Virus record (IMG/VR): IMGVR_UViG_3300025133_000020
DNA: 64,000 nucleotides
Direction: 5' to 3' (one strand)
Origin: a virus
Taxonomy: Duplodnaviria; Caudoviricetes
Shown here piece after piece: positions 3,294 to 41,878 of the stretch. The notes beneath the pieces were generated by a model. It did not search any database, had not been told where the DNA came from, and saw nothing but the letters and a program-made list of their open reading frames with translations. How positions within the stretch are numbered: position 1 is the first letter of the stretch; each line of letters begins with the position of its first letter. Position numbers and translations under genes: made by a program.

Positions 3294-3534
3294 GTACCGT
3301 AATTGGTTAGAAGAAGAGTTTTTCGTTTGCACTAAACATATCGGATATTCTTATGCCGACCTATTGATGATGCCTACTTCAACTAGAAGGTATCAACTAC
3401 ACCTACTTATGAATGAAAACCGAGCTAAACAAGAACATTACGACAAGTTGAGGGAGAAGAACTCTGGTGGTAAAAATACCATTAGCGGTGACGCATTAAA
3501 GTCTAAGATGAAATCAGGTGAAATCAATACTTAA
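3274..3534 (+). CDS. Frameshift-accessed extension of the tail chaperone (G/GT-type product), not in the ORF track
   Basis: The +1 frame is open from 3226 to TAA at 3532-3534 and has no ATG before 3367. It is entered at the T7 run 3273-3279 and reads FFGLSHEYRNWLEEEFFVCTKHIGYSYADLLMMPTSTRRYQLHLL...KSGEINT. Confidence 0.72.
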   Translation, partial: FFGLSHEYRNWLEEEFFVCTKHIGYSYADLLMMPTSTRRYQLHLLMNENRAKQEHYDKLREKNSGGKNTISGDALKSKMKSGEINT

Positions 3535-28673: not shown

Positions 28674-29510
28674 GTGATGAGTAAAAAAATAGATATGATA
28701 GATAAAAAATTTGGTAGGTTAACGGTTATTAGTGAGCATTCCAAAACTAGAAACGGGCATATACGATACGCTTGTGAATGTGAGTGTGGTAACAGTACCA
28801 ACGTATTAGGTACCCATCTTAGGCAAGGTAATACTATATCATGTGGGTGTGCTATACCTATAGGTAAAGCCAGAACTGATTGGACGGGGGTTGGTGAAAT
28901 GTCAGGCGCTTTTTGGGCTACGCATGTGGTTACTAGCGCTAGCGGTAATAAAGGTAGTAGGAGAGAATTACCATTAACGATAACAAAGGAAGATGCTTGG
29001 GATTTATTCTTAAAGCAGGGTAGAAAGTGTGCATTGAGTGGTATTGAATTGAAGTTTCCCGAAAGACATAATGATAGGTCGTGGACAGCTTCTTTGGATA
29101 GGATAGACTCGTCTGAGGGTTACATAGAAGGTAACGTTCAATGGTTACATAAGGACGTTAATATGATGAAACGCACCTACACCCAAGAACATTTTGTTAA
29201 AATGTGTGAATTGATTTCAGATAACTTAACTGACCTACCTGAAGAATCTAGCGTTAGAGGTAAATTAGTGCATCTTGCGTCAATCACGTATTTACATGGT
29301 TTAATATTTGAAAATTTCGAGGATTCGGATATGATAAAGGGTAAACTACAGAACGAATTGAATACACACTTAAATTTTGAGACTAAGATTGGTAATGTTA
29401 ATTGGGAAAATAGTATATTGAGTGGTGATATCTATTACAAACCAGTGGAAGGGGGTGAAAAATATATGGTATCAACGTTTACCGTTGTTAATACTGGGGT
29501 GATAGCGTAG
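28674..29510 (+). CDS. Free-standing His-Me/HNH-type homing endonuclease 1 with C-terminal extension
   Basis: N-terminal KFGRLTV...CECECG...LRQGNTISCGC Zn module; nuclease module CALSG...SLDRIDSSEGYIEGNVQWLHKDVNMMK; extra roughly 90-aa tail. Confidence 0.85.
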   Translation: MMSKKIDMIDKKFGRLTVISEHSKTRNGHIRYACECECGNSTNVLGTHLRQGNTISCGCAIPIGKARTDWTGVGEMSGAFWATHVVTSASGNKGSRRELPLTITKEDAWDLFLKQGRKCALSGIELKFPERHNDRSWTASLDRIDSSEGYIEGNVQWLHKDVNMMKRTYTQEHFVKMCELISDNLTDLPEESSVRGKLVHLASITYLHGLIFENFEDSDMIKGKLQNELNTHLNFETKIGNVNWENSILSGDIYYKPVEGGEKYMVSTFTVVNTGVIA

Positions 29511-29679: not shown

Positions 29680-31500
29680 ATGGCTCGAAAAATACCTTAT
29701 TTTGCCCGAAACTTTGCCGACATTAGAACCGAACTGGTTAATTATGTTAGGCAATACTACCCAGATATATTCAATGACTTCAACGATGCGTCCGTTGGTA
29801 TGATGCTACTGGAATTGAACGCTGCTACTGGTGACATGTTATCATTTCACACGGACAGAATGTTCCAAGAAACTCAAATTAATTACGCACAAGAACGGTC
29901 AAGCGTATTATCAATGGCTCGTACATTCGGGCTTAAAATTCCAGGTAAAAGACCATCAGTAAGTATAGTAGATTTCAGTGTAACCGTTCCAGTATTGGGT
30001 GATACGTGGGATATTAGTTACGCACCAGTAATTAGAGAAGGGGCACAAGTATCTGGCGCTGGAAAGGTATTCGAAACCTCAGATGATATAGATTTCTCAT
30101 CTCCGTTTGCATCAGGTGGTATACCAAATAGGTTAATTATACCTAATTTGGATAGTTCAAACAATATAGTTAATTACACCATAACCAAACGAGAGATGGT
30201 TATTAATGGTGTGACTAAGATATTCAAACGAGTGATGACGGAAAATGATGTAAGACCTTTCTTCGAATTATTACTACCTGAGACAAACGTTATATCTATT
30301 AATTCGATTGTTACACTTGAAGGAACCGATTTTACTACCACACCTACCATTGACCAATTTTTGGATAGTGAGTTAAGGTGGTTTGAAATGAACGCACTGG
30401 CAGAAGATAAGGTTTTTGTTAAAGATAATACACTTACCAGCGATAACACTTCAGTTGAGGTTGGTAGATGGGTTAAGGTAGACCAGCGATTTATTCGTGA
30501 GTATACCGATAATGGTTTTACAAAATTGATTTTCGGTGGTGGTTCCCAAGATATAGGGTCATTATGTGATTTCGATGTTGACGCAGCGTTGGTAAGTAGA
30601 ATCGGGGACTTCATTAATAATCTAAGTATGGGTACAACACCAAGCCCAAGCACTACTATGTTCGTAAGTTATAGAGTTGGTGGTGGTGCCGATACAAACA
30701 TAGGACCTAACGTTCTAACTACAGTTAATAATGTTAATATGTCCGTAAATGGGGTCGACTCAACTATAAATCAAGCGGTTAGAGGTTCATTGGAAGTTAA
30801 TAACCCACTACCAGCTTTAGGTGGTAAAGACGAACCATCAGTAGAAGAGATACGTAACTTAACACGTTACAATTTCGCTTCACAGGAGAGATGTGTAACA
30901 ATCAAGGACTACCAATCAAGAATTGCCTTGATGGATGGTGAGTTCGGGGTACCGTTCAGAACAGGTGTATTGGAAAATCAGAATAAGGTTGCGATTTATA
31001 TACTATCATTAGGTAGTGATGGGACGTTGACTAATCAGTCCACTAGCACGTTAAGACGTAATATAGCCACTTATTTGAGTGATTATAGGATGATGAATGA
31101 TTATGTGGAAGTAACTAACGGTCAAGTCATTAACTTAGCATTCGAATTGGGGTTATACATAGACAAGGAGTTCCCCCAAAGTCAAATCATAGCGGAATCC
31201 ATTAGTCAAATACAAAATTATTTTGATATCGATAATTGGGATATGGGTCAGAACATCTACATGAGTCAACTGATTGAGAATATCAATAATGTTGGTGGTG
31301 TATTAAACGTTATGGAGTTGAAAGTTTTCAATAAGGTGGGTGATGGATATTCCTTGAATCAAATAGCTCAACCATTATTGGATGAAGCCACAAAAGAGAT
31401 TGATTTGGCGCCTAACTACGCATTAATGGGTAGCCCTATAAGTATGTTTGAGATTAAGAGACCTAGCGTGGATATTCGCGTCCGTGTCAAGACTAATTAA
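29680..31500 (+). CDS. Baseplate wedge protein (T4 gp6 / baseplate J-like)
   Basis: YFARNFADIRTEL, FNDASVGMMLLELNA, SYRVGGG, GGKDEPSVEEIR, FASQERCVTIKDY and NVGGVLNV. Confidence 0.9.
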   Translation: MARKIPYFARNFADIRTELVNYVRQYYPDIFNDFNDASVGMMLLELNAATGDMLSFHTDRMFQETQINYAQERSSVLSMARTFGLKIPGKRPSVSIVDFSVTVPVLGDTWDISYAPVIREGAQVSGAGKVFETSDDIDFSSPFASGGIPNRLIIPNLDSSNNIVNYTITKREMVINGVTKIFKRVMTENDVRPFFELLLPETNVISINSIVTLEGTDFTTTPTIDQFLDSELRWFEMNALAEDKVFVKDNTLTSDNTSVEVGRWVKVDQRFIREYTDNGFTKLIFGGGSQDIGSLCDFDVDAALVSRIGDFINNLSMGTTPSPSTTMFVSYRVGGGADTNIGPNVLTTVNNVNMSVNGVDSTINQAVRGSLEVNNPLPALGGKDEPSVEEIRNLTRYNFASQERCVTIKDYQSRIALMDGEFGVPFRTGVLENQNKVAIYILSLGSDGTLTNQSTSTLRRNIATYLSDYRMMNDYVEVTNGQVINLAFELGLYIDKEFPQSQIIAESISQIQNYFDIDNWDMGQNIYMSQLIENINNVGGVLNVMELKVFNKVGDGYSLNQIAQPLLDEATKEIDLAPNYALMGSPISMFEIKRPSVDIRVRVKTN

Positions 31501-32436
31501 ATCAAACATTAATGTTGTTTTTAGTGATAACCACCTATTTATGATAAACGAATGACGATGAATTGTATTAAATGTGGTGGTAAGGTAACGAAGTTTGGTA
31601 AAATAAATAAGAGGCAGAGGTATCGATGTGGTAATTGTGATATTACGTTTACCGATACCTCTTTGATTAAAATTAAGGAGCGAAAGCTTAAATATGAAAA
31701 AATTGTAGATATGTATACCATAAGTGGTATGTCAACAACTGAAATAGGTAAGGTGTTAGGTACTTCATCTACGGTACCACAAAGAATATTAAAAGGTATG
31801 GGTATTACTAGAACTATAAGTGAAGCTAAGAAGGGTAAGTTAAGGGGTACTTCATTACCCACAGATAAAATAATAAGATTGTATTGCGAGGGTACTCCAA
31901 CAACAAAAATAGCTAAAGATTTGGGTTATTCGAAGACTTCTATTTTAAAAGTGCTCATGAGTAATAATATACCTAGAGATAACGAGTATGAATATCACCA
32001 CCCATATGATGACACTATAAAATGGTTATACATAGAAGGTAGCTCAATGTTAGAGGTGTCAAAACTACTTAAAATACCATACACCACCATTAATACTAGA
32101 TTACATAAGTTTGGTTTGGTTAGAACTGATGATAGATTTAGGATTGGTATGGATTACGATACTTATTTGGAAAATCTACCAGCTTATGATAAATATCGTA
32201 GTGATGTTAATAAGGTAACGAATGAGCAACCTATAGAGATATTAGATAATTGTGGTAAGCGTGGGTTATGCGGTGTGGATGGTGCATACCAATTAGACCA
32301 TAAGTTTTCTATCTTAGAAGGCTTTAAACAAGGTGTCGAACCAGAAGTTATTGGTAATATAGCTAATTTGGAGTTTATACCTTGGGAAGATAATCTTAGT
32401 AAGGGTGGCGACTGTTCCATCACTTTAGAAGAATTG
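31501..32436 (+). mobile_element. Homing-endonuclease cassette at the 3' end of the baseplate wedge gene
   Basis: Flanked by two synonymously different copies of R-V-K-T-N-stop (31483-31500 and 32437-32454). Confidence 0.68.
31536..31542 (+). promoter_or_regulatory. TATTTAT motif upstream of HNH endonuclease 2
   Basis: CCTATTTATG 9 nt before the ATG. Confidence 0.55.
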
Positions 32437-32454
32437 AGAGTTAAAACCAATTAA
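31552..32454 (+). CDS. Free-standing HNH homing endonuclease 2 (Zn ribbon + 3 HTH repeats + HNH)
   Basis: CIKC...QRYRCGNC Zn ribbon; three LY..G.S..EI helix-turn-helix repeats; YQLDHKFS...NLEFIPWEDNLSK nuclease; ends RVKTN*. Confidence 0.85.
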   Translation: MTMNCIKCGGKVTKFGKINKRQRYRCGNCDITFTDTSLIKIKERKLKYEKIVDMYTISGMSTTEIGKVLGTSSTVPQRILKGMGITRTISEAKKGKLRGTSLPTDKIIRLYCEGTPTTKIAKDLGYSKTSILKVLMSNNIPRDNEYEYHHPYDDTIKWLYIEGSSMLEVSKLLKIPYTTINTRLHKFGLVRTDDRFRIGMDYDTYLENLPAYDKYRSDVNKVTNEQPIEILDNCGKRGLCGVDGAYQLDHKFSILEGFKQGVEPEVIGNIANLEFIPWEDNLSKGGDCSITLEELRVKTN

Positions 32455-32504
32455 TAGTTGATTTAACGGAGCTTTAAATTATATTGATACAAAACTAATA
32501 AACT

Positions 32505-32885
32505 ATGGGATGTGGATGTAAAGGAGATAACAACTTCGAAATACCAGGAGCTAAAGAGGCTCATGAACCTAAAATAGGTTTAGACGTTAACACTATTGTT
32601 AAATGGGTGGTGTTCATTATTGTAACAATATTATCACCGATACTCGCCCCACCTATTCTGATTTGGGCACTATACAAAGGCGTTATCCAGAATGAAAGGT
32701 TGGATGCGATTCTAATGTTCAGGGCTATAGCTAGAGCAGCCAACGATATTTTGGAAGAAGAAGATGATTCGTTAGATGACGATGAAATTGATAGATTGGA
32801 TGAATTAGAGGTGGTAGAAATGGACGCTGACATCATGGATTTAATTAGAACGGCTCCAGTAGAAGAGTTACATAAGAATGGGTAA
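32505..32885 (+). CDS. Hypothetical membrane protein
   Basis: 126 aa; MGCGCK start, hydrophobic stretch VKWVVFIIVTILSPILAPPILIWAL, acidic tail. Confidence 0.75.
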   Translation: MGCGCKGDNNFEIPGAKEAHEPKIGLDVNTIVKWVVFIIVTILSPILAPPILIWALYKGVIQNERLDAILMFRAIARAANDILEEEDDSLDDDEIDRLDELEVVEMDADIMDLIRTAPVEELHKNG

Positions 32886-41221: not shown

Positions 41222-41878
41222 ATGCCTAAGAAATACAACCATAACGAGGAAGAAATCTGTAAGTTATACTTGGATGGGTTTAGTTTGCAAAAGATTGCGG
41301 ATAAATTCGATGTAAGTAAGATGCCGATACGTACAATAGTGAGTAATCATGGTATCCTTAGAGGTGGTACGAGTAATGGACAGAAGATAATCCTAACCAA
41401 AGAACAGGAAACTCGGATAAAATATTTATACTTAAATGAGTATTGTAGTGGTACGGAGATAGCTTCTAAAATGGGGTTAACTGCACCATTCGTTGATAAA
41501 TATTTGAGTGGTATTGACTATAGAAGAACTAAAGGTGAGGGTGCTTCTATAGGTTTGGTGAAAAGATATAGAGGGGTTAGATATGATGTATATTTAAACT
41601 CAGTAGATGAATATAAGCGATATAAATCTGACGTGTTGAAGGTGACTAATAAACAACCTATCGAAACTTTAGATAATTATAGTAAGCGGGGTGTTAGTGG
41701 GTTAGATGGTGCATATCATTTAGACCATAAATATTCCATATTGGAAGGGTTTAAGCAAGGTATTAACCCAGACATAATTGGTAACATAATTAATTTAGAA
41801 TTCATACCATGGGAAGACAACGTAAAGAAACGGGTCACATGTAGTATTTCTAAAACAGAACTTTTAAACTTAAACTAA
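41222..41878 (+). CDS. Free-standing HNH homing endonuclease 3 (2 HTH repeats + HNH), paralog of endonuclease 2
   Basis: C-terminal ~95 aa align closely with ORF 31552 (YHLDHKYSILEGFKQG...NLEFIPWEDN). Confidence 0.85.
   Translation: MPKKYNHNEEEICKLYLDGFSLQKIADKFDVSKMPIRTIVSNHGILRGGTSNGQKIILTKEQETRIKYLYLNEYCSGTEIASKMGLTAPFVDKYLSGIDYRRTKGEGASIGLVKRYRGVRYDVYLNSVDEYKRYKSDVLKVTNKQPIETLDNYSKRGVSGLDGAYHLDHKYSILEGFKQGINPDIIGNIINLEFIPWEDNVKKRVTCSISKTELLNLN

Follow-up and report, generated by a model that had tools for sequence, protein, structure and literature searches.

The 64,000-nucleotide (nt) stretch of viral DNA analysed here, referred to as the window (Duplodnaviria; Caudoviricetes; IMG/VR virus record IMGVR_UViG_3300025133_000020), very probably comes from an uncultured marine jumbo phage and harbors a free-standing homing endonuclease cassette of the HNH type, located within the 3' end of a gp6-like baseplate wedge gene. 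According to our model, the cassette carries the donor-derived last ~10 codons of the wedge gene including a stop, a spacer of ~50 nt and an endonuclease open reading frame (ORF) without a stop codon of its own, while the last five wedge codons of the recipient, their stop and the 3' flank stay behind downstream, where the endonuclease ORF enters them in frame. Since the endonuclease ORF runs in frame into this native terminus, both proteins end in the same peptide, RVKTN, a coincidence that had drawn attention to the region in an earlier note made from the sequence of the window. The features of the region, all on the + strand, are as follows (coordinates refer to the window; loci retrieved from IMG/VR are denoted by L numbers):

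29680..31500, + strand: baseplate wedge gene, gp6-like, 606 amino acids, complete, with a chimeric 3' end
31466..31500, + strand: cassette-borne replacement terminus, VDIRVRVKTN followed by the stop; 33 of 35 bases identical to L006, compared with 70% identity upstream
31501..31551, + strand: cassette spacer; five in-frame stops (counting the wedge stop), a conserved motif and a promoter-like TATTTAT
31552..32436 (probable start 31558), + strand: the endonuclease's own coding part; Zn-ribbon, several helix-turn-helix modules and a C-terminal HNH-like domain ending ...CSITLEEL
32437..32454, + strand: relic of the native wedge terminus; 17 of 18 bases identical to the wedge ends of L002 and L003, with the match continuing into the flank
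32455..32504, + strand: native 3' flank, reaching from the wedge terminus to the next gene; matches the flanks of L003 and L001
32505..32885, + strand: small Cys-rich membrane-protein gene, the normal downstream neighbor of the wedge gene

Two adjacent genes with one ending

The wedge ORF, identified as such by its match to the PHROG family phrog_219 ('baseplate wedge subunit', E 7e-19), terminates in ...SVDIRVRVKTN, with CGT GTC AAG ACT AAT TAA as its last codons (31483-31500). The endonuclease ORF (31552..32454, 300 amino acids), which follows after a 51-nt spacer, ends in ...CSITLEELRVKTN followed by the stop, and its last 18 bases read AGA GTT AAA ACC AAT TAA (32437-32454). Direct inspection confirms what had been noticed initially, namely that both genes end in R-V-K-T-N-stop with four of the five codons synonymously different. 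The two ends differ at five bases across these four codons, and all five changes are synonymous. Among the 197 stop-to-stop ORFs in the window with a length of 60 amino acids or more, no C-terminal 5-mer other than RVKTN occurs twice, and the probability that five random changes in these 15 bases would all be synonymous is 1.3e-4, so that the match is more than a product of chance. The comparative evidence presented below is decisive on this point by itself.

Alleles without the endonuclease identify the native terminus

An IMG/VR scan for wedge relatives, of which the best 80 of 185 were kept (63-88% identity), revealed a conserved C-terminus of the form ...MFEIK.P..DI.VRVK. The endonuclease is absent at 75 of these 80 loci, among them the close relatives L001-L003 (86-88% amino acid identity), and present only at L004, L006, L007, L028 and L065. 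The usual order at the 75 empty loci is the wedge gene, followed by the small Cys-rich gene (or its equivalent) and then the gene for a 1272-amino acid SprB-repeat protein.

In the empty allele L003, the wedge gene ends in AGA GTG AAA ACC AAT TAA and continues with taattgatttaat, while that of L002 ends in AGG GTT AAA ACC AAT TAA. Each of these ends agrees with the end of the endonuclease ORF at 17 of 18 bases, compared with 13 of 18 for the present end of the wedge gene. The agreement extends beyond the stop, with the flank tagttgatttaac... after the endonuclease stop matching the taattgatttaat... that follows the wedge stop of L003, and also the flank of L001, an allele described below. The empty alleles, which the earlier note had proposed to consult, thus use the codon set of the endonuclease ORF, together with its downstream flank. 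Because they match the endonuclease end and the adjoining flank better than the present wedge end, the endonuclease ORF has, by this comparison, the native wedge terminus as its last 18 bases, and the present wedge terminus is the newcomer. Relative to the empty alleles, the insert comprises 954 nt and starts five codons before the native stop, the position originally suggested for the junction and now supported by the alignment with L002 and L003.

The replacement terminus travels with the endonuclease

The extent of the mobile unit is apparent from a comparison with L006, which shares only 69.7% identity with the window in its wedge DNA (30600-31440) as opposed to 95.2% in the endonuclease (42 mismatches in 879). 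The tract of high similarity extends from ~31466, some ten codons ahead of the wedge stop, to precisely 32436. Identity collapses at 32436/32437, and the relic as well as all sequence downstream of it are unlike those of L006. Contigs with ~97% identity from an unrelated 2025 seawater run fit the window only at 31470-32465 and then continue with unrelated sequence. The start of the tract lies at 31466-31470 in both comparisons. Because the L006 tract starts before the wedge stop and ends at 32436, the mobile unit consists of the replacement terminus, its stop, the spacer and the endonuclease (~31466-32436), and the relic is the recipient's own. The earlier proposal that the cassette supplied the upstream copy is thus upheld, with the amendment that this copy is about ten rather than five codons long (tract from ~31466-31470).

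In L161, which has the nearest wedge allele (90%), the endonuclease is only 62% identical, and the nearest endonuclease, that of L006 (95%), adjoins a wedge gene that is only 77% identical; on the sequences compared, the wedge and endonuclease trees are discordant. In a tree of 86 distinct wedge alleles, occupancy requires 15 changes, at least 10 of which are forced by well-supported branches, with the share of occupied loci being inflated by their partial retrieval with the endonuclease as a query. The element is sporadically present at one fixed site and more similar between loci than its flanks, as expected of a homing endonuclease. The occupied arrangement was recovered in identical form from a second 2017 marine sample, and no contig joints that skip the endonuclease were seen in the four sequencing runs examined. 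There appears to be no cultured relative, because a DNA search of deposited phages yielded only a weak match of 150 nt, which lies inside the endonuclease.

Possible loss of the endonuclease and rival origins of the repeat

The wedge gene of L001, which is 88% identical and has no endonuclease behind it, ends in AGA GTG AAG ACG AAT TAA, directly followed by GAGTTAAAATCAATTAA and tggttgatttaatc. This region (L001:5804-5850) comprises a cassette-type ending and, after it, a slightly decayed native ending with its flank. Its junction coincides with an AATTAA that is common to the wedge stop region and the ...GAA GAA TTA A end of the endonuclease. L001 thus looks like the deletion scar of a lost endonuclease, formed between two AATTAA microhomologies. 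A different configuration exists in L161, in which a perfect 35-nt direct repeat, made up of the last five wedge codons, the stop and 17 nt of spacer-type sequence, stands on both sides of the insert (L161:2424-2480 and 3392-3450), with AGG as the Arg codon in both copies. This repeat could have arisen through conversion between the copies or through re-invasion of a scar allele.

L001, with its two copies back to back and no endonuclease, and L161, with its perfect repeat flanking spacer and endonuclease, could also be accommodated by a scenario in which the wedge terminus was first duplicated in tandem and an ordinary intergenic endonuclease, without any cassette-borne terminus, then landed between the copies. 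We consider this course of events improbable. The upstream copy travels with the endonuclease, both in L006 and in the seawater contig, whereas the downstream copy does not, as seen in the comparison with L006. Moreover, the first copy in L001 has the cassette-type AAG ACG codons, which fits the loss of an endonuclease by deletion between AATTAA sequences, and none of the 66 other empty alleles contains a tandem second copy of the terminus above background.

It is yet harder to believe that the orientation is the reverse, with the present wedge terminus being the original and the cassette having been inserted after its stop with a second copy of the terminus as its 3' end. Seen from the window alone, either copy could be the original, but the empty alleles agree at 17 of 18 positions with the downstream copy, and additionally with its flank, and at only 13 of 18 with the upstream copy. 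Furthermore, the sequence TCAAACAT... follows the wedge stop only in occupied alleles and is otherwise seen in the converted relic of L161, and the identity with L006 stops before the downstream copy is reached.

The shared peptide as an insertion footprint

If the cassette was inserted into a wedge gene, the tails of related endonucleases should reflect the loci at which they reside. Our survey of the endonuclease family covered 87 homologues, 76 of them with a complete C-terminus, and the best 80 of 290 loci were fetched; these 80 loci represent at least three locus types. RVK-type tails of varying length are present in 36 of the 76 complete homologues. At the wedge loci, of which 20 distinct occupied ones were examined, the endonuclease tail copies the local wedge tail, as illustrated by the following pairs:

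Endonuclease tail RVKTN; local wedge tail RVKTN
Endonuclease tail EIRVRT; local wedge tail CKVRT
Endonuclease tail DIKVRVKN; local wedge tail DIKVRVKT
Endonuclease tail DIRVRVKTAQ; local wedge tail DIKIRVKTAQ
Endonuclease tail PATDIIVRVK; local wedge tail PSSDIIVRVK

Homologues at wedge loci end as the local wedge gene does (in RVKTN, VRVK, VRT or KTAQ), and those at other loci end in EEL plus two or three residues and not in RVKTN, so that this check, like the one on the empty alleles, came out in favor of the earlier proposal. The paralogue within the window (41222..41878) indeed ends differently, as previously stated, aligning with the endonuclease up to ...EL and then finishing with LNLN and the stop. 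Its site is purely intergenic, lies 3' of a gene ending in ...GNGYYKVGL and is shared by ~25 IMG/VR loci. The same protein family is also found outside coding ends in this genome. At this second locus, located after a gene ending in ...YGNGYYK, the family members start 0-4 nt past the upstream stop and end in EEL plus two or three residues, and no relic of the upstream gene's end was detected there, either for the paralogue of the window or for roughly 25 family members.

Relics can be recognized at 10-14 of the 20 separate occupied wedge loci. Those of the window, L081, L103, L113 and L136 share the reading frame of the endonuclease stop, as do, less clearly, those of four other loci. By contrast, the relic is out of frame in L082 and L091 (-7 nt; tails LEELNSGLKPINS and LEELKPINL, each followed by the stop), L088 (+4) and L102 (+14), and in L101 the endonuclease has a stop of its own, with the relic following 38 nt later. 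Because close homologues read the relic in other frames or stop before it, RVKTN is, as far as these alignments tell, the footprint of an insertion, neither a family tail nor a sequence needed by the enzyme. The suggestion that the cassette uses the native terminus and stop as its own end is correct for the window; as a conserved arrangement it fails, with the relic lying out of frame at -7 nt in L004 and L007, which read the region in another frame, and at +14 in L028, which stops inside it in yet another frame, and with L101 having a stop of its own. Given this lack of conservation in L004, L007, L028 and L101, the in-frame use of the native stop is apparently a tolerated accident, not a design feature.

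We see hardly any merit in the notion that RVKTN serves a function in the endonuclease (for instance as a mimic of the wedge C-terminus in assembly, packaging or regulation), constitutes the family's own tail or matches by chance. In its favor, in-frame relics (~9 of the 14 that can be detected) are more frequent than the one third that chance would yield, and the tails of some family members elsewhere, such as ELLKLVKN, bear a loose hydrophobic-K resemblance. Against it, close homologues either use a different frame for this DNA (as in the LEELNSGLKPINS and LEELKPINL tails) or stop before it, members at the second locus end in EEL plus two or three residues, and chance is excluded by the match of the DNA flanks.

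The endonuclease and the spacer

The endonuclease probably starts at the ATG at 31558 (MNCIKC...; 298 amino acids), as its homologue in L006, 95% identical, has no counterpart of the ATG at 31552. The protein matches the PHROG family phrog_5104. Its N-terminal part contains a CxxC...CxxC ribbon and three or four helix-turn-helix (HTH) modules (Pfam HTH_23, Sigma70_r4_2 and HTH_7), so that, by its predicted domains, it combines sequence-reading DNA-binding modules with a putative nuclease domain, a feature of homing endonucleases. The paralogue at 41222..41878 is 42% identical and lacks the Zn-ribbon. In the C-terminal domain, D249-H250, N272 and N281 are invariant among the 27-31 homologues compared, and an AlphaFold (AF2) model of this domain (pLDDT 93.8) places the conserved residues in a strand-strand-helix (beta-beta-alpha) core. 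Its structural matches are weak and almost all of them are HNH nucleases, among them 4h9d (Gme HNH; Z 4.5), 5h0o (phage GVE2 HNH; Z 3.6), I-HmuI, the colicin DNases ColE7/E9, the HNH domain of Cas9 and McrA. A fold search with the full-length model returned HTH proteins only, and the sequence-level domain matches of the C-terminal 105 amino acids are spurious LRR matches to an NLEFIP motif. Based on the modelled fold, the enzyme is best described as HNH-like.

The spacer contains the motif TCAAACATTAATGTTGTTTTT (31502-31522). Almost every occupied wedge allele has this motif 3' of the wedge stop, even the distant L065/L103, L113 and L093, and the close empty alleles L002 and L003 both lack it. 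It also includes a TATTTAT (31536-31542), ~10 nt 5' of the endonuclease start. An (A)TATTTAT occurs 8-15 nt before the start codons of endonuclease genes and neighboring late genes, in related loci as well, and it may be a phage promoter or start-site signal, although its action as a promoter is conjecture. For the spacer, a structured RNA and a terminator were considered and rejected, with a fold z-score of +1.8 and no terminator-like site. Since five in-frame stops separate the two ORFs and 31200-32800 contains no Rfam family at E values of up to 1, the element is neither an intein nor a known intron such as a group I intron.

Respelling of the working copy and the proposed homing cycle

The upstream terminus had initially been described as recoded. 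It is indeed spelled differently; a pattern indicative of selection is not apparent, except for an Arg codon that changed from AGR to CGN. Empty wedge alleles differ synonymously among themselves at the terminus, too, and most of the synonymous differences are most simply explained as those expected between the wedge alleles of different phages, reflecting the codon usage of a foreign donor. CGN for Arg and AAG for Lys also appear in the wedge terminus of L004, L006 and L007, the other occupied close-clade alleles in IMG/VR. The Arg residue of the final R-V-K is encoded by CGN in 15 of 20 occupied versus 2 of 60 empty alleles (Fisher p = 2.7e-10, a value that ignores phylogeny), or in 15 of 22 occupied alleles once L161 and L162 (both occupied, with AGG) are added, whereas AGR makes up 79% of the Arg codons in large ORFs of this genome. 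The exchange of AGR for CGN may represent a selected, cleavage-resistant spelling that provides the working copy with self-immunity. In L035, an empty allele with a rare CGA codon for this Arg, a 105-amino acid, coiled-coil-like ORF (L035:2980-3315) separates the wedge gene from its small neighbor; L035 could be a resistant allele or one with a replaced cassette.

In the homing cycle that we envisage, the enzyme would cut the conserved native wedge terminus of endonuclease-free phages during co-infection, and repair off the occupied genome would then copy the replacement terminus together with the endonuclease. The occupied genome would be protected by the splitting of its native site at the junction between endonuclease and relic and, in addition, by the different spelling of its working copy, particularly the change of the Arg codon from AGR to CGN. 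Whether phage endonucleases in general exploit the coding ends of essential genes by such end-replacement homing, in addition to introns, inteins and split-gene cassettes, with the single Arg swap from AGR to CGN in ...VRVK as the determinant of immunity in this family, is a proposition for which we see an even balance of prospects.

Several observations weigh against the view of the element as a self-protecting homing endonuclease cassette. The nuclease fold scores are weak (best Z 4.5; every Foldseek E >1), and no nuclease family was found by sequence, either with Pfam on the C-terminal 105 amino acids, even at E 10, or with a profile search of the PDB. The perfect repeat of L161 means that the working copy has not been respelled in that lineage. 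The association of CGN with occupancy ignores phylogeny, and L094, L098, L101, L121, L140, L161 and L162 are all occupied and have AGR. The junction lies five codons before the stop in the window as opposed to 8-15 codons in other lineages, which reflects either several insertion events or erosion of the relic. The share of occupied loci in the wedge tree is inflated, as described above, and cleavage, the target site and immunity are elements that we infer, whereas the insertion itself, its boundaries, its horizontal spread and the identity of the relic are established by the sequence comparisons.

Our findings have several implications. The cassette illustrates how a selfish nuclease that brings along a spare ending can settle in the terminal part of an essential virion gene, with no need for an intron or intein, and it does so with unusually clean boundaries between donor and recipient sequence. 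Its layout accounts for duplicated C-terminal peptides and chimeric endonuclease tails that annotation pipelines are bound to misread. For a large group of uncultured marine phages, it also reveals where recombination has left a boundary within the baseplate module. It also predicts that the enzyme targets the native wedge terminus and that naturally resistant alleles exist; if the Arg swap does confer immunity, a natural pair of cleavable and resistant targets is readily available.

Other endonuclease genes nearby

Just upstream of the small Cys-rich gene, several loci contain an ORF of the GIY-YIG type (MSCGIYKI... / MGCGIYKI...; L006:6820-7341, L004 after 6774 and L036:1834-2427). It is a second, unrelated endonuclease in the same intergenic region and possibly borrows the first codons of the small gene (whose product starts MGCGCK). 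On the other side of the wedge gene, a different HNH/EndoVII-like endonuclease (28674-29510; phrog_3322, phrog_374) lies between the RNR and wedge genes. It has a C-terminal extension of ~93 amino acids that is absent from most homologues, and no separate homologue of this extension was found in the fetched loci.

Comparison with known systems

Within phages, the closest parallels are MobA/gene 60 and MobE/nrdA of T4-like phages (Bonocora et al. 2011 PNAS, as cited in bioRxiv 10.1101/2022.08.31.505936). As far as they are described in the citing source, these systems likewise involve a free-standing HNH homing endonuclease in an essential phage ORF, without an intron or intein; extra sequence contributed by the element keeps the host gene functional and disrupts the element's own recognition site, and the insertions are patchy and recent, with the endonuclease being progressively lost. 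According to the same account, the MobA and MobE insertions leave the host protein as two functional polypeptides with added C- and N-terminal extensions (and a bypass element), whereas the wedge protein stays in one piece (606 amino acids), and the five-codon leftover has no role in the host gene and is read in other frames in relatives. The element would also resemble the intergenic seg and mob genes of T4-like phages (PMC2988022) in its intron-less homing, the co-conversion of flanks and an immunity based on differences in the target; those genes, like the paralogue in the window, are intergenic and come without a duplicated coding end. In a full-text literature search of limited coverage, we did not find a phage report of an endonuclease cassette with a duplicated 3' end of its host gene. 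The kind of arrangement is known from fungal mitochondria, while its phage setting is one for which this limited search returned no published description.

The fungal counterparts are the mitochondrial mORF 'gene hybrids' described for atp6, atp9, cox2 and nad3 of Glomus sp. (Beaudet et al. 2013, PMC3630166) and for atp6 of Allomyces macrogynus (Paquin et al. 1994, as cited in PMC3630166). In these hybrids as in the window, an endonuclease ORF lies within the 3' coding end of an essential gene; an element-borne, foreign C-terminus completes the host gene in phase, here leaving a full-length wedge protein with a conserved terminus; and the native C-terminus is left downstream, where it is closer to element-free relatives than the inserted one. 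The differences concern the setting and the architecture. In the window, a virion gene of a tailed phage is targeted, and the enzyme is HNH-like, with a Zn-ribbon and an HTH array, in contrast to the LAGLIDADG or GIY-YIG enzymes of the mORFs. The duplicated piece comprises 5-15 codons, compared with tens of codons in the mitochondrial hybrids. Finally, stops separate the wedge gene from the endonuclease, which ends on the stop of the relic, unlike the arrangement in the fungal gene hybrids.

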